A stretch of 47,780 nucleotides of DNA from a virus. Location of the stretch: positions 1-47,780 of IMG/VR virus record IMGVR_UViG_3300037313_000674. One strand, 5' to 3'. Positions within the stretch are counted from its first letter, which is position 1. Each line of letters opens with the position of its first letter. Below are positions 1-47,780 of this stretch, piece by piece. The notes beneath the pieces were generated by a model, which made no database searches, was not told where the DNA came from, and saw only the letters and a list, made by a program, of their open reading frames with translations. The translations under genes were made by a program, and so were the position numbers.

Positions 1-127
1 TGGGGCCGACCTGCGCGGGGCCAACCTGTACGGGGCCAACCTGCGCGGGGCCAACCTGCGCGGGGCCGACCTGCGCGGGGCCAACCTGTACGGGGCCAAC
101 CTGTACGGGGCCGACCTGTACGGGGCC
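1..127. repeat. Terminal direct repeat: 1-127 is identical to 47654-47780, implying a circular contig of about 47,653 bp
   Basis: I compared the two window ends base by base. Both read t + 8 units of the 15-bp array + ggggcc. A 127-bp overlap is typical of a k-mer assembly overlap. Confidence 0.93.
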
Positions 128-301
128 AACCTGCGCGGGGCCAACCTGCGCGGGGCCAACCTGTACGGGGCCAACCTGCGCGGGGCCAACCTGCGCGGGG
201 CCAACCTGTACGGGGCCGACCTGCGCGGGGCCAACCTGCGCGGGGCCGACCTGCGCGGGGCCAACCTGTACGGGGCCGACCTGTACGGGGCCGACCTCAA
301 A
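2..301 (+). repeat. 15-bp tandem array, ggggcc(a/g)acctg(cgc/tac), 19 near-identical units plus 1 degenerate unit
   Basis: Twelve of the 15 positions are invariant across 19 units. The only variation is A/G (Asn/Asp) and CG/TA (Arg/Tyr). The array is in frame with the pentapeptide CDS. Confidence 0.95.
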
Positions 302-676
302 GACGCAAAAAACGCCGATTTCATAATCGCGCAAACCCGCATTCTTTCCGAAGGCGACTTGATCGGCTGGAAAAAGTGCGCTTGCGGCGTCCTCGTAAAG
401 CTGAAGATCCCCGCCGATGCGAAGCGCTCACACGCCTTCGGACGCAAGTGCCGCGCTGAATTTGTCGATGTTCTGGAAATCCTCTCGCCTTCAATCGATG
501 CAGAGGGCGTCAAAACCTGGCAAGCCGCCGACGTGGCTATCAGCTCCCGCGACAACAAAACCGAATACCGCGTCGGGCAGCGGGTAACCCCAGATCGTTT
601 CGATGAAAACTGGCAGGAGGAATGCGCATCCGGAATCCATTTCTTCATCACCCGTATCGAAGCGGAAAATTACTGA
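2..676 (+). CDS. Pentapeptide-repeat protein, 3' part (continues from 47529-47780 across the circular junction; 266 aa in total)
   Basis: Frame 2 is open from the window start to TGA at 674-676. It encodes 19 G-A-[D/N]-L-[R/Y] units followed by a globular C-terminal domain (...[21 protein letters not shown]...[18 protein letters not shown]). That domain resembles one often fused to pentapeptide repeats in phage proteins (DUF5758-like, recalled from memory). Confidence 0.85.
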
Positions 677-880: not shown

Positions 881-920
881 AAGCCCTTCGAAGTCCCGCC
901 AGCTTCGAGGGGCTTTTCTA
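881..920. terminator. Bidirectional rho-independent terminator between convergent units
   Basis: A 13-bp stem pairs aagcccttcgaag with cttcgaggggctt (one G-U pair). It is followed by TTTTCTATT on the plus strand and by CTTTGCTT on the minus strand. Confidence 0.6.
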
Positions 921-1073
921 TTGCCTGAACCATCCTGCAACCTCGCCCCACGTCAATTGCGCAAGCTCGGCCTTGAACGCTTCGCTGCGCTTCTGATCCG
1001 CCGAGACGTACAACAGCCCCACGGCTATCGCCACGCCCACCCATCCGATTGCAAACCTGAATATCGCCGGCAT
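918..1073 (-). CDS. Small membrane protein (51 aa)
   Basis: The ATG is preceded by GGAGGG at 8 nt. The product is MPAIFRFAIGWVGVAIAVGLLYVSADQKR..., with one TM helix. It is too short to appear in the ORF track. Confidence 0.45.
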   Translation of the reverse strand: MPAIFRFAIGWVGVAIAVGLLYVSADQKRSEAFKAELAQLTWGEVAGWFRQ

Positions 1074-1191: not shown

Positions 1192-1764
1192 CTACCCCTC
1201 CGGATATACCGACGTAGCCGCCGCCTCCTTCAAGCGCGCCCTAGCCCTGAATTCTGGCTGTTTTGCCCCTATCCGATACACATACCTCGATTGACTTGCC
1301 GCTTGACCGCGATCAGCATGCTTTTCGTCAAACAGCCATGGCCGGTCAGGATCCTCGATCAAAGCGCGCCGTTCGAGCATGCCGAGATCACGGGCCTTCT
1401 GGTAAACCGTGAACTTCAATCCGGCCTTGCCGGTCTCGGGCAGGAGCTTCTGGAGTTGCGCAAACGAATACCATTTGTCCGGATCGGTTCGCGCTACCAG
1501 GCGTTCGAACAAACTATACCCGCCGGCCGCCGGTATCTTCTTCCGCTTCATCGCCTTCCGCTTTTTGGCCAGTTCCAAAAAGTCGAAGCCTCTCCGGTCC
1601 TTTTTCGTCCGCTTGGCTTTCCGGGCCGTGATCTCCGCTCTGAGCTTCGCCACCGCGGGGCGCTTCTTCGTCTTTCGGGCCAACGCCTTTGCTTTCGCCG
1701 CCTCGGTCTGCTTCACCGCCAACAAGGCGTCAGCCCGTCGGCGCATTTCCTCTTCATCGGCCAT
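1192..1764 (-). CDS. Basic protein (190 aa) with a K/R-rich N-terminus and a winged-helix-like C-terminus; candidate iteron-binding initiator
   Basis: ATG at 1764 has GGAGAAAAATAGAA upstream. The longer ORF-track start at 1953 would read through the iteron repeats. The initiator role is inferred only from its position next to the iterons. Confidence 0.7.
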   Translation of the reverse strand: MADEEEMRRRADALLAVKQTEAAKAKALARKTKKRPAVAKLRAEITARKAKRTKKDRRGFDFLELAKKRKAMKRKKIPAAGGYSLFERLVARTDPDKWYSFAQLQKLLPETGKAGLKFTVYQKARDLGMLERRALIEDPDRPWLFDEKHADRGQAASQSRYVYRIGAKQPEFRARARLKEAAATSVYPEG

Positions 1765-4918: not shown

Positions 4919-5356
4919 TCACTTCGTATTTTGCTCCACCCAAGACACGACGGCGCCTTCAAATCTGAACCATTCGAGGGCATGACGATACTCGGCGAAA
5001 CGTTGGTGCAATTCGCGTTCAAGCACATGCCCGTCGCCCTCGGTCAGCACCGTCAATAGCTCTAGCGGGTACGGATTCGCGGCTCTAAGCGAGTTTAAAC
5101 GCTTTTGAACATCGCCGGCCTTGCCAATTTTCACATAGTCGCCGCAACGGATTACATACACGTCGCATGGCTCGCGGCCAGGGGTATCGAAGTTTTCCTC
5201 AAACGCATTCGCATCTTCGGGACGGACGCGGACCATGGTCTTACCGATTGTGATTGCCGGCAATTCGCCGGTGCGGATCAAGGTCAGCACCATAGTCGCC
5301 GAACAATTCCACCTATCCGCCAACTGCGCCGGCGACAGTAAAGACGCCATTTTCAA
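4919..5356 (-). CDS. Excisionase-like HTH (HTH_17/MerR-type) fused to a T5orf172/MUG113 (GIY-YIG superfamily) domain
   Basis: The N-terminus reads LSPAQLADRWNCSATMVLTLIRTGELPAITIGKTMVRVR. The C-terminus reads VYVIRCGDYVKIGKAGDVQKRLNSLRAANPYPLELL...ERELHQRFAEYRHALEWFRF. There is an ATGA overlap with the int stop. Confidence 0.8.
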   Translation of the reverse strand: MKMASLLSPAQLADRWNCSATMVLTLIRTGELPAITIGKTMVRVRPEDANAFEENFDTPGREPCDVYVIRCGDYVKIGKAGDVQKRLNSLRAANPYPLELLTVLTEGDGHVLERELHQRFAEYRHALEWFRFEGAVVSWVEQNTK

Positions 5357-6363
5357 ATCTCCAAACTATCCGCCAAGTCCCGCAAATGGCCGGGGCTGTA
5401 GCGGGCGTAAACTTTCTCTGTGATTCTGCTGTCGGAATGCCCCAGGAACTGCGCGATCCTGGTCATCGTGTGGCCGTCTTCGGCCATCCACACCGCCGCG
5501 CTGTGGCGTAGCACGTGCGGTGTCACGCCTTCGAGCTTCGCCGACTTCGCCGCCGCCCGGATGCCCGTCTTGATCGATGCCACCTGCGCGCCGGCCCATT
5601 CGATCACATAGGGCGACAGCGCGGCCTGCTTGGCGAGTAGCAGCGCATCGCGCAGGCTGTTGTTCATCGGGACTGTCGCGCGGCGCTTGCGCTGCGTGAT
5701 GTCCTCCACATTGGTCAGCGAGATCGTGTTGCGGTCGAAGTCGACGCGCAGCCACGTCAGCTCGAGCGCGGCCGAGACACGGGCGCCGGTTCCGATCATC
5801 AGCCGGATCGCCAGCGCGATATGCGGCACCTTGGCGTGCTCTATCAGCTTGCGCACTTCGTCGCGCGTCAGGTAGCGGTCCTTCGGCGCCGGCTTCGATG
5901 GCCGCTCGATCTTCGGCGCATCGGTGATCAGCTTCGCGTCGCGTGCCCATACCAATATCGATCGGAGATGGCCGAGTTCGGTATGCACGGTTCCGACGCT
6001 CTTGCCGGTGCCGTACCGCTCGACGGCGTAGAGCCGGCAAAGGTCGGTCGTGATCTGGCCGGGATCGAGCTTGCCGAACGTTGGCGCGAGTGCCTTCCAT
6101 GTGTGGGCCATGGTTTGGAGTACGACCTTGCCGGCCTTGTCCTTCTGGTAGCCAGCCCACAGGTCTGCGACAGTCCGGCCTACCGGCCGCGTGAGTTCCG
6201 CGTATCGAGCCGCGGCAAGCGCTTTCGCTTCTCGGGCGTCGGAAGTTCCAAGACGGTAGCGCCGCCGTGTAGATCGTCCGTCGGGCTGCTCTTCGTCCCA
6301 GGCAACGCAGAATTCTCCGTTGAGCCTTGTGAGCCGCCATTCGAGTTCGTCGGATTTTTGCAT
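5353..6363 (-). CDS. int: Tyrosine integrase (phage integrase family)
   Basis: The sequence contains TGARVSAALELTW, HVLRHSAAVWMAEDG and LGHSDSRITEKVYARY (R...HxxR...Y catalytic pattern). The N-terminus is arm-binding-like. The gene is adjacent to the tRNA-fragment attP. Confidence 0.92.
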   Translation of the reverse strand: MQKSDELEWRLTRLNGEFCVAWDEEQPDGRSTRRRYRLGTSDAREAKALAAARYAELTRPVGRTVADLWAGYQKDKAGKVVLQTMAHTWKALAPTFGKLDPGQITTDLCRLYAVERYGTGKSVGTVHTELGHLRSILVWARDAKLITDAPKIERPSKPAPKDRYLTRDEVRKLIEHAKVPHIALAIRLMIGTGARVSAALELTWLRVDFDRNTISLTNVEDITQRKRRATVPMNNSLRDALLLAKQAALSPYVIEWAGAQVASIKTGIRAAAKSAKLEGVTPHVLRHSAAVWMAEDGHTMTRIAQFLGHSDSRITEKVYARYSPGHLRDLADSLEI

Positions 6364-13524: not shown

Positions 13525-13749
13525 ATGGCCTGTAACTGCATCGAAGTCGTCGACCAGAAGCTGAAGGAGCGGAACACGCGTCTTCAGGCCACGATCATCT
13601 TTTCCGATCCGATGCGGCACACCGTATCGCTCGGGACAGAACAACTCGAAAAGGGCCGCGGGAAGGCTAAGGCGGTGGCGATGCTACCAACCTTCTGCCC
13701 GTTCTGCGGCGTGCGTTATGTCGAAGCGGAGGCTAAAACCGATGGCTGA
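13525..13749 (+). CDS. Small Cys-containing protein (74 aa), zinc-ribbon-like
   Basis: The cysteines form the pattern CNC...CPFC. The ORF is coupled to the downstream gene. Confidence 0.55.
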   Translation: MACNCIEVVDQKLKERNTRLQATIIFSDPMRHTVSLGTEQLEKGRGKAKAVAMLPTFCPFCGVRYVEAEAKTDG

Positions 13750-14026
13750 CATCGATCCCGAAGCACCGACCTCGGACGGCAAGCCCCGCCCGAACAACAT
13801 CGCCGGCCAGGAACTGTCGCAGTTCATAGACCGTATCGAGCGCCTGGAGACGGAAATTCAGGGGCTCAAGGGCGACAAGTCCGATATCTACGGCGAAGCT
13901 AAGGGCTGCGGCTACGACACCCGCACGATCCGCAAGATCGTCGCCCTTCGCAAGAAGGACGCCGACGAGCGGCGCGAGGAAGAAGACCTGCTCGACGCCT
14001 ACCTGCATGCGATCGGCATGATCTGA
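13742..14026 (+). CDS. GapR-like / DUF2312 (UPF0335) DNA-binding protein
   Basis: LSQFIDRIERLETEIQGLKGDKSDIYGEAKGCGYDTRTIRKIVALRKKDADERREEEDLLDAYLHAIGM closely follows the GapR/DUF2312 pattern. Confidence 0.85.
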   Translation: MADIDPEAPTSDGKPRPNNIAGQELSQFIDRIERLETEIQGLKGDKSDIYGEAKGCGYDTRTIRKIVALRKKDADERREEEDLLDAYLHAIGMI

Positions 14027-17953: not shown

Positions 17954-18946
17954 TTAATCGTCCAGCCGCTCGGCCAAACATGCCGCTGAGTGATGGCCGT
18001 ACACGCGCTCGACAGTCTGTATCGTGTCGCCGAGCAGTTTCGCCACATCGAACACTGATTTTCCCTCTTGGAGTAGGTGGGAAGCCCTGGTGTGCCGCAT
18101 GCAATGCGGATTGGCGCGATCAGCCATCCCAAGCCCTTCAAGAAGCTCACGATATGGGGCATAGAAATCGGCCCGCTGAAACAGCCGTTCGTTCGGGCTC
18201 GACAGCCACAGCGCATGCAATGGCGCTTCCATCTTCTTCAGGATAGGCACGATCGGCTGCCGCTTCTTGGTCGTGATCTTGCCGGGCAGTTGCAGGGTGA
18301 TTCGGCGCGTCTCCCAATTGACCTGCGACCGGCGCAGGTTCTCGATTGATGCGCGGCGCGCGCCCGTGTAATAGAGCAGCTTCACGAAATGCTCCAGTTC
18401 CCCGCCGCCCTGCGACGCCGCCCAAAAGATCCTGGCAAGCTCTTCCCGGCTGTAATAGGACGCTTCGTCGTCATAGCCGATCAGCTTCTCGTGCGGGTAT
18501 TCGATCGATGGCATGGCCAGAATGCGCTTCCAGCGCAGCGCATGCTTCGCTGCCGCGTGCAGCACGGCCAGTTCCCGTTTGATCGTGGCATCGCTGCCGG
18601 TCTTGTCTTTGCGCTTCGCGCCGCCACCGATCTTCCCGGAGCGTCGAACTTCTGCGTATTCTCTTGAATGAACTATATCGATATCTTCAACAGCGCGGCT
18701 GCCGAAAAACGCCTTCAGGTGCTTGACGATATTGTCCCTGCGCTCGGGGTCGGCAACGCGATGCTCAAGACAATACTGGTCGAGCATGTCGCTCACAGCA
18801 AGTCTTCGAGGCCCTTTTCGTCGATCGACGGTCGGCTCAAAAGTCGTGCTCGAAGGGACCGGGCGGCTTCGAGTCTTGCCGCTATCGTCTTTCCAGTAGA
18901 GCCGGAACGTGCCTTCTTCGGTTTGGCGGATTTCCTGGCCACGCAT
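17954..18946 (-). CDS. Second tyrosine recombinase (phage integrase family)
   Basis: The sequence contains LLYYTGARRASI, HCMRHTRASHLLQEG and LGDTIQTVERVYGHH. It lies immediately downstream of the XRE gene. Confidence 0.88.
   Translation of the reverse strand: MRGQEIRQTEEGTFRLYWKDDSGKTRSRPVPSSTTFEPTVDRRKGPRRLAVSDMLDQYCLEHRVADPERRDNIVKHLKAFFGSRAVEDIDIVHSREYAEVRRSGKIGGGAKRKDKTGSDATIKRELAVLHAAAKHALRWKRILAMPSIEYPHEKLIGYDDEASYYSREELARIFWAASQGGGELEHFVKLLYYTGARRASIENLRRSQVNWETRRITLQLPGKITTKKRQPIVPILKKMEAPLHALWLSSPNERLFQRADFYAPYRELLEGLGMADRANPHCMRHTRASHLLQEGKSVFDVAKLLGDTIQTVERVYGHHSAACLAERLDD
18662..18692. promoter_or_regulatory. Intragenic element copy (13/14) inside recombinase 2
   Basis: The sequence is TCTTGAA-tgaactatatcgatatc-TTCAACA. 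It sits in an AT-rich island within otherwise GC-rich coding sequence. Confidence 0.4.
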
Positions 18947-39125: not shown

Positions 39126-41884
39126 TCGTCGCGCAGCGATGCGCGCTCGCCGGCAGTGAGTGCGCGCGGCGCGGTAATGGCTTCGAAAACGTAGCCCGCC
39201 AGCGGCGCATAGACATTCCCGATGGCCGGTTCGGAGACATGCGCGACGTTCTCGCTCGCCGCCCCGGTCGCCCAGCTTGCGCTTTGCGTCTCGACCGTTC
39301 CGTCGATCTGGATCACAACGTCGCCGCTCGAATAATCGACCGTGCAGCAGACGTAATGCGCGGCGCCGGCAGTCAGGGTGGCGGCGGAGTACAGACCGCT
39401 CTGCGTGTCTGCGGCAACCCTGCGCGTGTTGCAGGAAATCGACCCGGACGTGGCATTGACCTGGACGTTGAACAGCAGGCCGTATGCGCTGTCGAGCACC
39501 GTGAACAGATAATAGTCAGTGGTGAAGGCCGGTATTTTGACCACGCCGGCAAACGAGAATCCCGGTTTGTTGCGGTCGAGAGCGGTCGCCCCGGCCAGCA
39601 GCAGCGCGTCGCTGTTGGCTGCGGAAAACAAAATGCCGTTGAGCCCATTCTGTGCCGCCGTGACATAGGCCGGCTGCAGGCCCGCCGTCGCTTGCGCGGC
39701 GTCGAACCCATTGCCAGACTTGTCGGCGATCGATGCGACATCGGAGCCGTTCAGGGTGACGCTGCCCGAATCCGACGCATCGATCCACCAGTTGAGGTCT
39801 GGCACGATATCGTCGGCCGCGGCCGATCCAGGCGGTATAGGCGGCGGAATCAGTCGTGTCACGCGCGGCGCGCCGATCACCACGGTCTGCACCTTGTCGG
39901 TCACGTCGCCGACGCCAAAGGTGAATTCGAGATAAATCTGGCCGGCGACATTGTCGACGCTGCCGCCGCCATCCAGCTCAAAATCGCCGGATAGCCGCGA
40001 GAACGAGTTGAACAGGTCGGTGTTCAACTGCGCCCCGATGATATGCGATTTGACCAGCGCCGAGCCGTTTAGCTCCAGCAGCGTCAGCGACGTGCCGGAG
40101 AGCACCAGCGCGTCCTCGCGCGCCATATAGCCGCGGATGCGCCATGTCTCGCCGTCGAAAGCCGATGACCCTGGAATACCGTATGGGAAATAGATGCTGA
40201 CCGGCGTCGTGCCGACGACCGGGCTTGCTGTAACTTTCAGTCTCAGGCACCAAAGCGGGTGGATATAGACCACCTCCAGCACTTCGATCGTCACGTTGCC
40301 GGGCGTGCCCGGATCGAGCTGCCAATAGGTCGGCAGCGCGCCGCCGGAGCCGATCACGCCTTCGACAGCCCCGGCGAACAGCCCGACGCCGACGGGCAGG
40401 ATGGGGTTGATGACCACCGGCAGCGACCGGTCAAGATGGTTGCCGCGCGAGCCCGTCGCCCGGATCGGGATTTCTTCGATGGCGAAATCGTCCCACACAT
40501 ATCGATCGGCGACGGTGCGGATCTTGTGCCCGGCGAAAATCTCGAACCGGTCGTAGCCGCCCTCGGAAAACGACCAGGTGAATGTTTCAGCCGGGTCGTG
40601 GCTTTCTGCGCGTAGCTCGCCGACGAATGTGTTGTCGGCGATCGTTTCGTCGATATCGGGCTCGAACTCGGCCGGGCCGATATTGAGAGCCGCCATGAAC
40701 GGCCCGCCGGTCCAGTCGTCCCATGGGAAGGTCAGCGGCGCCCACTGCCGCGGCGTGAAATCTTCCTCGGTAATGTCGGCCTCAAGCACGCAATTCGGCT
40801 GATTGTCCTGCAAAAGCACATTCGGCAGGATCGACATCACCGATGTCGGTTCGAATGGCGAGGCGCCAGCATCCGGATCGATGTTGAAATACCGGCAGTC
40901 CTGGAAACGGATGTTGTATGCGCCGCCAAGCGCATGGAATGCCGCGCCCGCCGCCGGACGGCCGCGAAGCGTGCCGCCGTTCGGACTGTCGGCAAACACA
41001 TGCGTGTCGCGCACCCTGACGCGCCGAAAGGTGTTGTCGTGCGAGACGACTTCCGGAGCACCGTTGCCAAGATCGAAGAAGCCATAGGTGGAGGCGCCGC
41101 CATTGCCGGATCGGATAATGTCGATGTCCTCGGCCAGGCAGTAGCGCGAACTCTCGAACATCGAACATACGCCGAGCGGCGCGTTGTTTCCGTCGATCAG
41201 GCCGCGCCGAACCGTGACATAGTCGCTGTAATAGATCGAATTGTTGTCCTCGACGAAACTGTCGTTCAGGTCGTTCTTGAAGTAGAAATCCTCCAACAGG
41301 CCATACGGGCTGTTATTGGCCTGGAAAGCATGGCCGCGGTAGAACGGTCCGCGCTGCGCAAACGCCTCGTAGCGGCTGACATGCCAGTTGGTGCAGCGCG
41401 TCAGCGCCAGGCCGGTGGCGCCGTTGGTGCAGCGGATGCCATGAAAGCGCAGCCCGTCGCAATCGGCCGCCTCGATATTGTCCTCGGTCTTGAAGTCGAC
41501 AATTTCGCCGAAGCCGCCGACGCCGACCGGCGGTGGCAGATGGCTTTCGAGATAGTCGTCAAGCGTCACCGGGTTCGGCGTCGAAAAACCGGTCAGGTCA
41601 TTCGGCGGCGAGGCGTGGCCGATGTCGATATATCTGAAGATCGAATTGTCGGCGCCGCTGACGATATAGAGACCTTTACCGTCCCGGTGACGGATACGGC
41701 AATGCATCATCAACACGCGGTGCGAGATCAGCACCGGATTCCTGTCACACCAAATGTCCTTGCCGAAAATGACCTGGCCGTCGTGGGACGACTGGAAGCC
41801 GTCGACGCGCTCGAGCGTCTTCGCGACACCTGGCTTGCCCGGATTGGCGATCATCGCCCGAACAAAGGACGGGATGACGCTCAT
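39095..41884 (-). CDS. Tailspike-like protein: right-handed parallel beta-helix N-terminal half plus a C-terminal LamG/ConA-like jelly-roll
   Basis: Beta-helix-type repeats occur in the N-terminal half (...GIRCTNGATGLALTRCTNWHV...). The C-terminal WWIDASDSGSVTLNGSDVASIADKSGNGFDAAQATAGLQPAYV...NGLNGILFSAANSDALLL is typical of Laminin_G_3 domains. Confidence 0.7.
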   Translation of the reverse strand: MSVIPSFVRAMIANPGKPGVAKTLERVDGFQSSHDGQVIFGKDIWCDRNPVLISHRVLMMHCRIRHRDGKGLYIVSGADNSIFRYIDIGHASPPNDLTGFSTPNPVTLDDYLESHLPPPVGVGGFGEIVDFKTEDNIEAADCDGLRFHGIRCTNGATGLALTRCTNWHVSRYEAFAQRGPFYRGHAFQANNSPYGLLEDFYFKNDLNDSFVEDNNSIYYSDYVTVRRGLIDGNNAPLGVCSMFESSRYCLAEDIDIIRSGNGGASTYGFFDLGNGAPEVVSHDNTFRRVRVRDTHVFADSPNGGTLRGRPAAGAAFHALGGAYNIRFQDCRYFNIDPDAGASPFEPTSVMSILPNVLLQDNQPNCVLEADITEEDFTPRQWAPLTFPWDDWTGGPFMAALNIGPAEFEPDIDETIADNTFVGELRAESHDPAETFTWSFSEGGYDRFEIFAGHKIRTVADRYVWDDFAIEEIPIRATGSRGNHLDRSLPVVINPILPVGVGLFAGAVEGVIGSGGALPTYWQLDPGTPGNVTIEVLEVVYIHPLWCLRLKVTASPVVGTTPVSIYFPYGIPGSSAFDGETWRIRGYMAREDALVLSGTSLTLLELNGSALVKSHIIGAQLNTDLFNSFSRLSGDFELDGGGSVDNVAGQIYLEFTFGVGDVTDKVQTVVIGAPRVTRLIPPPIPPGSAAADDIVPDLNWWIDASDSGSVTLNGSDVASIADKSGNGFDAAQATAGLQPAYVTAAQNGLNGILFSAANSDALLLAGATALDRNKPGFSFAGVVKIPAFTTDYYLFTVLDSAYGLLFNVQVNATSGSISCNTRRVAADTQSGLYSAATLTAGAAHYVCCTVDYSSGDVVIQIDGTVETQSASWATGAASENVAHVSEPAIGNVYAPLAGYVFEAITAPRALTAGERASLRDDCLKPKWGLA

Positions 41885-42432
41885 GGGCTGACATCGCCGT
41901 TGATCTGCCAGACAGCCGACACATCGTCGTCGTTGGCGCGCACGATGGCCGTGATCGATGCGTCCTGGCCTTCCGAAGCGTACCAGTCGTATTTGTTCTT
42001 GAGGCTGGCGCCGGAGCCGGCCGCGAGCGTGAACGAACCGGCGCCCACCTGCACCAGGACGACATTGGTCGATACCGGCAGCGTTCCGGGCAGCGTGACC
42101 GTCACCGGGGTCGCGCTGTCGACCAGAACCCAGCCGCCAGACATCGCCGCCGTGACGGTGAAATCGTCAGTTTCGGTAATAAACGACGGGGAATAGCCAC
42201 CGCCGATCAGGTTTTGAAGCTCTTCCGACAGCGCGTCGAAAGTGACGATGTGATTGGCGAGCGCGCCGTCGTCCCGCTGGATCAGCGCCAGTTTCGCCCG
42301 GATCTGATCGAGCGTGCGCTTGACGCGGTTATATTCCGCGTCGACATGCGCGGCCGGAAGCGGGTTATTGGGGTGGTTGGACTGATAATTCGTGAAATTG
42401 TATTCACGATTGTATGCCACCGGTTGCGCCAT
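41881..42432 (-). CDS. Tail fibre N-terminal-type protein (183 aa)
   Basis: The start is taken at MAQPVAYNREYNFTNYQSNHPNNPLPAAHVDAEYNRVKRTLDQIRAKLALIQRDDGALAN. This is a pattern common at fibre N-termini. It is the first gene of the late operon. Confidence 0.6.
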   Translation of the reverse strand: MAQPVAYNREYNFTNYQSNHPNNPLPAAHVDAEYNRVKRTLDQIRAKLALIQRDDGALANHIVTFDALSEELQNLIGGGYSPSFITETDDFTVTAAMSGGWVLVDSATPVTVTLPGTLPVSTNVVLVQVGAGSFTLAAGSGASLKNKYDWYASEGQDASITAIVRANDDDVSAVWQINGDVSP

Positions 42433-42508
42433 GGTTTTCCCCGAGGAAGAAAACCGTTCGCGACACGGCATAACGACGAAATTCGGCTCAAAATACAGTG
42501 TCGTCTTT

Positions 42509-42539
42509 TGTTGGTCAATCTCTTGCGTTATATTCAACA
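42509..42539 (-). promoter_or_regulatory. Element copy (12/14) at the head of the late operon, in the divergent gap with the M15 gene
   Basis: The minus strand reads TGTTGAATATAACGCAAGAGATTGACCAACA. The left arm closely resembles the TGTTGAATTTAACGAAGGAG copies. Confidence 0.45.
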
Positions 42540-42564
42540 TCAAACCGCAACGAAGGGCAGCGAA

Positions 42565-44100: not shown

Positions 44101-44580
44101 TCACCCCTCATAGCCGGTCAGTTCGGCCAATCTCTTCTGACCCCGGTGGACGCGGCTCTTGATCGTGCCGACCGGAACGGCCTGCAGCGCGGCCATTTCT
44201 TCATATTCATGCCCGAGCCCGTAAAGCACGAGCGTGTCGCGCATGGGCGCCGGCAAGTCGTTCAGCCGGACGAAGACCTGCTTGGCTGCGAGCGCGGCTT
44301 CCGGGTCGTCTTTCGCCGGCAGCATTTCGATCACGAGATCGTCCGGCTCGGCCATCAGGTGGCGCTTGCGCGTCGTCTGCGTGATGAATTCGTTTCGGCA
44401 GATCGTCGTCAGCCAACCGGCCATGTTCGACCCCGTCTGAAACTGATGCTGGCGCTCAAGGGCCCTGGCGAGCACGTCCTGCATGAGGTCGTCGGCGCGG
44501 TCGGCGTTCCGGGTCAGCCGGAGCGCGTAGCTGCGGAGTTTCTTAGCGTGATGCAGCAGTTCGTCCGCGAAATCGGCCAC
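44101..44580 (-). CDS. ECF-type sigma-70 family RNA polymerase sigma factor (159 aa)
   Basis: Region 2 reads DLMQDVLARALERQHQFQTGSNMAGWLTTICRNEFI. Region 4 reads LPAPMRDTLVLYGLGHEYEEMAALQAVPVGTIKSRVHRGQKRLAEL. The GTG start follows AAGGGGA. Confidence 0.88.
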   Translation of the reverse strand: MADFADELLHHAKKLRSYALRLTRNADRADDLMQDVLARALERQHQFQTGSNMAGWLTTICRNEFITQTTRKRHLMAEPDDLVIEMLPAKDDPEAALAAKQVFVRLNDLPAPMRDTLVLYGLGHEYEEMAALQAVPVGTIKSRVHRGQKRLAELTGYEG

Positions 44581-44681
44581 CTGGAAATCCCCTTCTATCG
44601 ATCGGCGGGGCCGATGCCGTGAGGTTTGCCACCGGCCCCGCTTCCATCAGCCCGTCCCGTGCGGCGGCGACCGGGCTGGTT

Positions 44682-44833
44682 CGTGATTTCGAAGCTGCGC
44701 GGCGCGTTCGGGATCGAACCGGGACACCCTCACTATCGCCAAACTCAAGACCTACCCGCCCTTGTCGGGTCGTCGGTCACGGGGTTCACTGATACCCCCG
44801 CCAAGCAAGCGGCCGCGCAGCCACGAAATCACG
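44682..44833. repeat. Long-range inverted repeat, 22 nt per arm (20/22), enclosing 108 nt of hairpin-rich sequence
   Basis: The arm cgtgatttcgaagctgcgcggc (44682-44703) pairs with the reverse complement of gccgcgcagccacgaaatcacg (44812-44833). The only mismatches are the central 2 nt. Confidence 0.75.
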
Positions 44834-44843
44834 CTGTTCAAAG

Positions 44844-44939
44844 AGACCGGCCCGCCATCCGTGTACGGGGGAGGAGGGGACTTTTGGCAGGCCGGTCTTA
44901 GCTTCCAGTTTGCGCGGGAGGAGGTGCGCGGTCTGGAAG
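44844..44939 (-). ncRNA. Candidate sRNA module with two hairpins each carrying CCUCCUCCC (cuckoo / CcsR / alpha-r14-like)
   Basis: Minus-strand RNA hairpin 1 (44902-44939) is CUUCCAG..GCGC-A-CCUCCUCCC-GCGC..CUGGAAG. Hairpin 2 (44844-44898) is AGACCGGCC...CCCCUCCUCCCCC...GGCCGGUCU. No plausible ORF is present in the 370-nt gap. Confidence 0.45.
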
Positions 44940-44950
44940 AAACTTGTGTT

Positions 44951-45259
44951 TTACGCTGCGTGCGCAGCAAGGTTCTGCCGAAGCAGGTAGCCTTCGAGCG
45001 CCCAAATCTTGTTGCGTGCATTCTCCCGTGCGATCTTGCGGCCGATGTCGGCGTCGAAATTCTCGAGGCTTGCCGCGGCGCTCTCGCCGGTCACGATATA
45101 GCCGTTGCGCAAAGTGAGCGCGCAGACCGTCATCGTCGTTCCGGGGAACACATGGTACTGCTCGGACTTGATCGCCTGGTCGATCAGGGTCGGCGTGAGG
45201 CGGGGCGCGTTGAGCCCTTTGGCCTGGATTTCGTTTTCGATCTGCTCTTCGTCTTTCAT
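44951..45259 (-). CDS. Gp49-like protein (Phage_gp49_66 family)
   Basis: The sequence is MKDEEQIENEIQAKGLNAPRLTPTLIDQAIKSEQYHVFPGTTMTVCALTLRNGYIVTGESAAASLENFDADIGRKIARENARNKIWALEGYLL. Confidence 0.75.
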   Translation of the reverse strand: MKDEEQIENEIQAKGLNAPRLTPTLIDQAIKSEQYHVFPGTTMTVCALTLRNGYIVTGESAAASLENFDADIGRKIARENARNKIWALEGYLLRQNLAAHAA

Positions 45260-45310
45260 CGGTCTTGCTTTCTGTCTCGTTGAACGTTTTGTTGATCGAA
45301 TGTCGATCAA

Positions 45311-47528: not shown

Positions 47529-47780
47529 ATGATCGACCACGAAATCCGGCACAACGAAACCGACGCGATCCTGTTCACCGCGAAAATCGAGTGCAAAACG
47601 ACAGTTTCGACGGGCGTGAAACTCGGCATGGCTGTTCTCGCCGCGCTCGCCGCTGGGGCCGACCTGCGCGGGGCCAACCTGTACGGGGCCAACCTGCGCG
47701 GGGCCAACCTGCGCGGGGCCGACCTGCGCGGGGCCAACCTGTACGGGGCCAACCTGTACGGGGCCGACCTGTACGGGGCC
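47529..47780 (+). CDS. Pentapeptide-repeat protein, 5' part (runs off the window end and continues at 128-676)
   Basis: GGAGAA lies 6 nt upstream of the ATG. The product begins [52 protein letters not shown].... Its frame matches frame 2 at the window start after removing the 127-bp overlap. Confidence 0.85.
47654..47780. repeat. Second copy of the 127-bp terminal overlap
   Basis: It is identical to 1-127. Confidence 0.93.

Follow-up and report, generated by a model that had tools for sequence, protein, structure and literature searches.

A putative divergent cuckoo/CcsR-like two-hairpin RNA between a gp49-like gene and a sigma factor gene of a temperate phage

The DNA analysed here (IMG/VR record IMGVR_UViG_3300037313_000674, 47,780 nt, hereafter the window) is a phage genome, in which a 370-nt gap (44581-44950, minus strand) separates a gene of the Phage_gp49_66 family from a gene for an extracytoplasmic function (ECF)-type sigma factor. 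Read in the direction of these genes, the gap begins with two adjacent hairpins (44844-44939), each of which presents the same anti-Shine-Dalgarno (anti-SD) sequence in its loop. We regard the pair, with a probability of roughly 0.55, as a divergent HP2-type anti-SD small RNA (sRNA) of the cuckoo/CcsR/alpha-r14 group, predicted from sequence and carried by a temperate phage as an accessory element. In rhizobia, Brucella and Rhodobacterales, few regulatory RNAs are as widespread as those of the cuckoo/CcsR/NfeR1 family, which influence stress resistance, nitrogen signalling and symbiosis. Trans-acting anti-SD sRNAs, as a class, include NfeR1, CcsR and AbcR. An initial annotation of the window had assigned the two hairpins to this family, and had considered a phage-borne copy beside a sigma factor gene to be unusual.

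The motif CCUCCUCCC (CCTCCTCCC as DNA) is found exactly twice in the window, both times on the minus strand and 47 nt apart (44916-44924 and 44869-44877). Its chance expectation in the window is 0.42, and 7 out of 100 shuffled windows contained two or more copies anywhere. Once one copy is present, the motif rate predicts another on that strand, no more than 60 nt away, with a probability of approximately 5e-4. For the minus strand of 44835-44950, the minimum free energy (MFE) structure is identical to the centroid structure and consists of two hairpins separated by a 3-nt spacer (-45.6 kcal/mol, z = -4.97), with none of 200 shuffled sequences being as stable. When the motifs were held fixed and the other bases permuted, both motifs ended up in loops closed by at least 6 bp in only 7 of 2000 shuffles. 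The motif rate and the outcome of the motif-fixed shuffles argue that the hairpin pair is real and not the result of chance, and the coordinates at which the initial annotation had placed it are exact.

Hairpin 1 (44902..44939, 38 nt; inverted repeat I7) has the same architecture in the MFE and centroid structures: a 7-bp CUUCCAG/CUGGAAG helix, a 3x3 internal loop, a 4-bp GCGC/GCGC helix and a 10-nt loop, ACCUCCUCCC, in which the first motif (44916..44924) is unpaired. This pairing and loop are precisely those that had been described. Hairpin 2 (44844..44898, 55 nt; inverted repeat I3) begins 3 nt 3' of hairpin 1. The perfect 9-bp stem proposed for it earlier is present, but is part of a longer helix of 14 bp, one of them a G-U pair, which is followed by a 4-nt bulge, three further base pairs and a 17-nt loop, CCUCCUCCCCCGUACAC. 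This loop opens with the second motif (44869..44877), which is likewise unpaired and occupies its 5' side. In the cmscan alignment the 5' edge of hairpin 1 carries the pentamer GUUUC (44939..44943; GUUUCUUCCAG corresponds to 44943-44933), and hairpin 2 is followed by the 3' tail CUUUGAACA (44835..44843). Together with the last stem base of hairpin 2, the tail forms a short UCUUU run. Hairpin 2 and its tail would make a weak intrinsic terminator at best, and read-through is likely. A consensus scan (sigma70-type) identified neither a promoter nor a terminator in the gap, and no terminator at the tail of hairpin 2. The element was assigned to the minus strand from the identity of the motif, from the direction in which the flanking genes run and from the orientation of the Rfam matches, not from its folding energy. 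The two modules are also alike beyond the shared 9-mer (GTGTACGGGGGAGGAGG at 44861-44877 and GTTTGCGCGGGAGGAGG at 44908-44924, written as plus strand, are 82% identical over 17 nt), consistent with their having arisen by duplication of one hairpin module.

Searched at their gathering thresholds, the Rfam covariance models matched nowhere in the window. A permissive Rfam search of 44400-45100 (701 nt) gave CcsR1 (RF02791) and ar14 (RF02344) as the two top matches, both of them full-length and on the minus strand. CcsR1 scored 21.7 bits against a gathering threshold of 65.3 (E = 0.0077 in the 701-nt search, model positions 1-83), and ar14 scored 17.9 bits against 58.8. The ar14 alignment lacks 37 positions from the middle of the model. 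With the CcsR1 consensus the element shares an identical loop context, CACCUCCUCCCG, and an identical 5' flank, GUUUCUU. A covariance-model scan had been suggested as a check on the family assignment, and at the Rfam thresholds its outcome is negative. The assignment itself is partly supported, by the two-hairpin architecture, by the strand, which is the predicted one, and by the CcsR1 and ar14 alignments, which are the only full-length ones obtained, but their scores remain far below gathering. We take the Rfam matches as corroboration of the predicted relationship and not as proof of it. According to the authors who described the cuckoo family, covariance models are inadequate for it, because its stems diverge freely (PMC3927594).

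A thermodynamic matcher developed for the family looks for 2-4 adjacent hairpins of 24-50 nt, every one of them with the motif in its loop; loops may measure 9-27 nt, helices must have 6 bp or more, and interruptions and linkers may not exceed 6 and 10 nt, respectively (PMC4615179). The window element consists of two adjacent hairpins without a multiloop, and an exact, fully unpaired CCUCCUCCC is found in both loops. The loops measure 10 and 17 nt, the helices 7+4 and 14+3 bp, the internal loop 3+3 nt, the bulge 4 nt and the linker 3 nt. The element thus fits the cuckoo HP2 variant (Reinkensmeier & Giegerich 2015) in everything except the size of hairpin 2. The matcher definition places cuckoo RNAs in Alphaproteobacteria (Rhizobiales and Rhodobacteraceae), the sole group known to have them, and all 321 described members are located on alphaproteobacterial chromosomes, chromids or plasmids, with the word phage not being mentioned (PMC4615179).

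Among characterized members, a close parallel is offered by CcsR1-4 (RSs0680a-d) of Rhodobacter/Cereibacter sphaeroides, which likewise consist of two adjacent hairpins of similar size with CCUCCUCCC in each loop, lie directly 3' of a gene encoding a small protein and carry GUUUC in the 5' flank. The CcsR RNAs form a tandem cluster of four, whereas the window holds a single unit, and the upstream gene is the phage gp49_66 gene here and a DUF1127 gene (ccaF1) there. Hairpin 2 is longer in the window and has a 17-nt loop, there is no evidence of an RpoHI/HII promoter, and the carrier is a phage. Like the alpha-r14/NfeR1/SmelC397 RNAs of Rhizobiales, the element is built of hairpin modules whose loops carry one and the same anti-SD motif and whose stems vary greatly. 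The ar14 members have three, in some cases four, hairpins, whereas the window element has two, and independent sigma70-type or stress promoters have been described for some of them, whereas none is seen at the window element. Judged from its sequence, the element is a divergent two-hairpin cuckoo/CcsR-like RNA that falls outside both Rfam families as these are currently curated.

Cuckoo-type RNAs were found in other viral contigs as well. When IMG/VR was scanned for pairs of motifs with a spacing of 30-60 nt, at least 120 loci were returned, and the counts given here refer to the matches listed. Clean two-hairpin folds were found at a minimum of about 22 loci, and the ar14 model scored above its gathering threshold (58.8 bits) at no fewer than 14. 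The scores were 79-82 bits in five contigs (L005, L100, L106, L110 and L113) and 71-81 bits in eight (L010, L013, L050, L069, L088, L097, L102 and L107), and two copies of 108-109 bits were present in L119. Besides the loci above gathering, at least about ten carry two-hairpin elements that fall below the ar14 threshold; scores of 32-50 bits were obtained for L068, L111, L014, L011 and L089. The elements of the main group are flanked by phage DNA helicase, exonuclease and Mu Gam-like genes, as revealed by PHROG scans of L097, L100 and L005; the same flanking open reading frames (ORFs) recur by sequence at related main-group loci, the flanks of L110 being unscanned. Elsewhere the neighbours are a Mu-type major head gene (L111), a gene for a CII-like regulator (L014) and one for a RecE-like exonuclease (L089). 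L119 may represent a host flank, since it contains two copies and, by inspection of the sequence without a Pfam scan, a DUF1127-like ORF downstream of them.

These viral copies resemble the window element in being cuckoo-type RNAs embedded among phage genes, but the sequences of their stems bear no relation to its own. They are mostly three-hairpin ar14 types, located in helicase-exonuclease/Gam neighbourhoods, behind Mu-like head genes or near cI/cII-like genes, and none of those listed adjoins a sigma factor gene or a tRNA-like RNA. The ar14 model matches above gathering at 14 or more IMG/VR loci, the majority of which are bordered by phage genes for replication, recombination or the head, and the notion that a phage copy is unusual is not supported. 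Mobile elements beside cuckoo loci were noted in a survey from 2011 (PMC3927594). In the searchable literature we found no mention of phages together with cuckoo, CcsR or NfeR1 RNAs, and a BLAST search with one viral ar14 copy against GenBank phages gave no match. In the sequence data cuckoo RNAs thus recur in phages, a finding that has apparently not been described. The recurrence makes the present locus less surprising, and the general phenomenon more useful. What is gained from this locus is modest, as it is one divergent, predicted copy; the broader point, which can be checked, is that intact ar14-type RNAs recur in phage gene neighbourhoods. Should the phage copies work, lysogens and infected cells would be supplied with additional anti-SD seeds, and these could reshape the regulons of the family. 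This would open a way for phages to interfere with their hosts and to spread the cuckoo family horizontally. One of the contigs with a cuckoo-like element, L068, also contains a Phage_DGR RNA (69.4 bits; 883-1007, minus strand).

The carrier of the window element is clearly a phage. The 47.78-kb window (60% G+C) encodes a large terminase, portal, major head protein, DNA polymerase, primase, helicase, exonuclease and methyltransferase, together with two tyrosine integrases whose genes lie apart from each other (5353-6363 and 17954-18946, both on the minus strand). The terminase, portal, head, polymerase and integrase genes bear out the initial annotation on this point. Both ends of the window (1-297 and 47656-47780) match one pentapeptide-repeat gene of Caulobacter phages with 87-91% identity, and since this gene is split across the two ends the record is a circularly permuted complete genome. 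A gene for a GapR-like nucleoid-associated protein is present at 13718-14026 on the plus strand (Pfam PF10073, E = 8.5e-28). The GapR-like family is typical of alphaproteobacteria and their phages. The best DNA match of gp49 is Rhizobium phage RHph_N65, and DNA matches to phages are limited to gp49, the pentapeptide-repeat gene and the core of a tRNA-like RNA (rhizobial, Caulobacter and Sulfitobacter phages). A DNA similarity search for the host revealed no plasmid match to the window. The GapR-like gene and the RHph_N65 match of gp49 point to an alphaproteobacterial host.

The element is part of a run of minus-strand genes extending from 46116 to 43268, which comprises a 205-aa ORF, the gp49_66 gene, the 370-nt gap, the ECF-type sigma gene and ORFs of 85 and 66 aa. 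The gp49 gene (44951..45310, 119 aa; Pfam PF13876, E = 2.7e-32; phrog_322) was called with an internal start at 45259, giving 102 aa, in an independent gene call on an identical Logan contig, and its stop codon ends 11 nt 5' of hairpin 1. The contig occurs in SRR35147159 as well. The sigma gene (44101..44580, 159 aa, GTG start; Pfam Sigma70_r2 and r4_2; phrog_1740) is preceded by the ribosome-binding site (RBS) GAAGGGGA at 44588-44595, and its product scores 53.7 bits against NCBIfam TIGR02937 (cutoff 42.9). It also matches the model of the PhyR sigma-like domain (PF22029, E = 3.7e-8). Going by sequence, the phage sigma factor is an orphan, possibly of the EcfG-like type. The intervening 370 nt contain no gene according to the independent call on the Logan contig, and a GC-frame filter selected no ORF, in agreement with the annotation. 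The gap does open with the hairpins, as had been stated, but does not consist of these hairpins alone: five folded modules follow one another along it (the whole-gap fold has z = -3.9), with a separate tRNA-like RNA in the middle. Two further G+C-rich hairpins (44648-44678 and 44605-44641; inverted repeat I6), for which no homologues were found, fill the space from the tRNA-like RNA to the RBS of the sigma gene.

Conservation was assessed from relatives of the sigma factor, the large terminase subunit (TerL) and gp49. No relatives of the sigma protein were found in viral contigs. The best identities were no more than 41% among genome representatives, 38% in metagenomes and 44% among 5.8 billion proteins (the window itself excluded), and exact-protein look-ups returned only the same Logan contig. 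The motif CCTCCTCC was absent from the equivalent position 5' of the sigma gene at all 37 genome loci checked, the metagenome relatives being unscanned; in L133 it occurs on the opposite strand, approximately 330 nt upstream of the sigma gene. Fifteen loci encode TerL proteins 54-72% identical to that of the window, and a clean counterpart of the element was found at only one of them, L160 (IMGVR_UViG_3300006790_000004, TerL 72% identical). Here a two-hairpin cuckoo-like element with entirely different stems (5711-5805, plus strand; scoring 27.3 bits with the CcsR1 model and 25.9 bits with ar14) carries ACCUCCUCCC in loop 1 and CCUCUUCCUCCC in loop 2. Conservation of the two motifs in related phages had been named as a further check, and in this one homologue the motif of loop 1 and the two-hairpin geometry are preserved, whereas motif 2 is degenerate. 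The L160 element is bordered by an HNH endonuclease gene and by the gp49 homologue, and thus adjoins gp49 at the end opposite to that in the window. This points to insertion hot spots on either side of gp49. The L160 locus revealed no sigma homologue; here, as at the 37 sigma loci, the link to the sigma gene that had been proposed is not conserved. C-rich hairpins near VanY in L164 and L173 could not be equated with the window element. In L037, a distant relative (structural genes approximately 30-42% identical), three CCUCC-type motifs at 1385-1450 (plus strand) were rejected as a cuckoo fold, since they lie in an unstructured, C-rich divergent intergenic region. These motifs are located just upstream of a homologue of the window gene at 41881-42543.

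Several observations weigh against assigning the hairpins to the cuckoo/CcsR family as a phage-borne sRNA. The Rfam scores are not only far under gathering but stem mostly from the very motif that prompted the search, and the E-value of CcsR1 rises to about 0.5 when scaled to the whole window. At 55 nt, hairpin 2 exceeds the 50-nt limit of the matcher by 5 nt, while hairpin 1 (38 nt) is within it. A DUF1127 (CcaF1-type) gene is absent, as none of the 140 small ORFs of the window matched the family in Pfam, so that the best-studied context of cuckoo RNAs is missing. Folding energy does not separate the strands, the reverse complement being the more stable of the two (-51.7 kcal/mol). The element is sporadic and sits in a variable region: at 80 loci with gp49 relatives (62-89% identical) no tandem motif-in-loop element was found downstream of gp49, L159, the closest gp49/TerL relative, also lacks it, and one homologue only was available for the test of conservation. 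The host assignment relies on indirect hints, namely the GapR-like gene and DNA similarity to phages. The consensus scan gave neither a promoter nor a terminator that would delimit a discrete transcript. Finally, a duplex scan with the loops revealed no outlier among 51 translation-initiation regions of the phage; the best duplex, with the integrase gene at 5353-6363, reached -15.9 kcal/mol, where the 5% quantile of the random background is -14.8. The targets, if there are any, are more likely to be found among host mRNAs.

The hairpins could instead act only in cis, protecting the 3' end of the gp49 transcript, serving as a leaky terminator or attenuator into the sigma gene, or sequestering the sigma RBS with their loops, and not give rise to any trans-acting sRNA. 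We consider this unlikely, although it does account for a position so shortly after the gp49 stop codon and inside the leader of the sigma gene, for the lack of a separate promoter, and for a long G+C-rich stem in hairpin 2 that is followed by UCUUU. Neither two identical 9-nt loop motifs nor CcsR-like flanks are needed for a plain terminator, however. The loops can pair with the RBS region of the sigma gene (loop 2, -12.5 kcal/mol), but this pairing is unexceptional, ranking 12th of the 51 genes and not reaching the background quantile given above, and approximately 250 nt of independently folded RNA separate the loops from that RBS. Moreover, the L160 element is located upstream of gp49 and is not accompanied by a sigma gene. 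Rather improbable is a non-functional passenger, a piece that came from a host cuckoo locus, or from the copy of another phage, and entered a moron-type variable region by illegitimate recombination. The sporadic occurrence among relatives would suit such an origin, as would the lack of close relatives of the segment from gp49 to VanY, which includes the sigma gene and small ORFs, and the known location of cuckoo loci beside mobile elements (PMC3927594). Decay should strike loops and stems alike, and yet both 9-mers are intact, the stems nearly perfect and the geometry of the modules kept; intact copies are, in addition, retained by many independent phage lineages.

A function of the plus strand, where an antisense transcript would present two strong SD-like GGGAGGAGG boxes as a ribosome-loading or sponge element or as the start of a tiny ORF, is very improbable. 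The plus strand is at least as stable as the minus strand, but neither box is followed at 5-12 nt by the start of an ORF of at least 30 aa, and the promoter scan found nothing on the plus strand there. The genes around the element, from 46116 to 43268, all lie on the minus strand, as do the Rfam matches. Hardly credible at all is that two ordinary G+C-rich hairpins share a pyrimidine 9-mer by chance. The genome is G+C-rich and abounds in inverted repeats, and shuffled windows do at times contain two copies of the motif, but the low expectation for a second copy so close by on the same strand, the position of both copies in loops of a significantly stable fold and the match of the flanks to the CcsR1 consensus all speak against coincidence.

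If the hairpins are a divergent cuckoo/CcsR-type sRNA, the most parsimonious model is that they would be co-transcribed with the gp49-like gene from the minus strand, as no promoter-like site was found upstream of the element. The sRNA would then probably be released from the gp49 3' untranslated region (3'UTR) by an endonucleolytic cut in the U-rich GUUUC that borders hairpin 1 on its 5' side. CcsR1-4 are excised from the ccaF1 3'UTR by RNase E, and the 5' end of CcsR1 is made at GUUUCC (PMC8034643). Because of its resemblance to this site, the GUUUC of the window is a putative processing site and, by analogy, probably one of the RNase E type. Hairpin 2 would stabilise the 3' end and terminate transcription weakly at most, with some transcripts continuing into the tRNA-like RNA and the sigma gene. 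The single-stranded CCUCCUCCC loops would probably serve as redundant seeds that pair with purine-rich RBSs of host (or phage) mRNAs and block their translation. This would parallel NfeR1, in which anti-SD seeds act redundantly by occluding the RBSs of targets (PMC10746234).

A more far-reaching speculation, which we regard as unlikely, is that the gap and the sigma gene make up a mostly-RNA take-over cassette of the phage, in which a cuckoo RNA, a tRNA mimic and an ECF sigma factor are delivered from one transcript. In that case the cuckoo-type RNA, as a mimic of the 16S rRNA anti-SD tail, would damp the translation of host mRNAs with strong SD sequences, the tRNA mimic would engage a host tRNA- or Ro-binding factor or supply a processing signal for the sRNA, and the sigma factor would redirect transcription. 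Alphaproteobacterial phages would then capture cuckoo RNAs as a general strategy, one that has not been described so far.

The tRNA-like RNA in the middle of the gap (44682..44833, 152 nt, minus strand) was identified from its fold and with a custom covariance model. It starts 10 nt 3' of hairpin 2, and folds with -80.9 kcal/mol (z = -5.2). It is enclosed by a 22-bp stem (44812-44833 with 44682-44703) and contains one hairpin at 44781-44799, another, CCCG-ACAAGGG-CGGG, at 44755-44769 and, at 44707-44723, a T-arm-like CCCGG-UUCGAUC-CCGAA. In the N4-like Sulfitobacter phage vB_SupP_AX, an intergenic stretch without annotation matches its core (79% identity, E = 5e-6). An invariant 20-mer, GGTGTCCCGGTTCGATCCCG, retrieved 25 viral loci, and 17 sequences could be aligned as a family. 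The members have in common a long, covarying closing helix whose sequence differs between them, the conserved stretch CCACUAG, a hairpin CCG-ACAAGGG-CGG and a canonical T-arm-like CCCGG-UUCGAUC-CCGAG, in which the invariant segment is GGUGUCCCGGUUCGAUCCCG. At the annotated pairs, 94.3% of the alignment cells are paired, compared with 66.3% in shuffles and 35-51% with slid partners, and 96 double changes were observed in paired cells where 27.6 were expected; both comparisons are to be read with the stem boundaries having been chosen by complementarity. The covariance model built from the alignment gives the window copy 117 bits and brings the family to 20 members in all, while a looser pattern scan added one extra member only. 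Besides the window copy, the phage members include L254:1446-1582, L255, L256, L257, L259, L262-L264, L267, L269-L272, L275, L276, L279 and L366.

ARAGORN detected no tRNA or tmRNA in the window and called no family member a tRNA, and Rfam gave no match to the tRNA-like RNA at E <= 10 for the window region or at E <= 1 for ten member loci. The sequence GGTTCGATCC was considered as a tRNA gene or a tRNA-derived phage attachment site (attP) and rejected, given the negative ARAGORN result and its identity with the T-arm of the larger tRNA-like RNA. The tRNA-like RNA may be more novel than the hairpin pair, and this unclassified family merits a study of its own. It was not seen together with cuckoo elements or with relatives of this phage at any of 195 loci (L001-L100 and L159-L253, with L101-L120 unsearched).

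Bacterial Y RNAs mimic tRNA (PMC4201824). In L256 the tRNA-like element directly follows a TROVE/Ro60 gene (Pfam E = 3.7e-13), and in L270 a Ro60 homologue is located 1 kb downstream. The proximity of these genes suggests, by analogy, that the family is a Y-RNA-like tRNA mimic. The order of domains differs from that of YrlA, and the Ro-binding motif GNCGAAN0-1G was not found in the closing stems inspected by eye. L256 additionally contains a sub-threshold YrlA-like match (504-570, plus strand, 34.5 bits) upstream of the Ro60 gene, with the tRNA-like element downstream of this gene. In the N4-like roseophages, the tRNA-like element is located 3' of a gp43-like gene.

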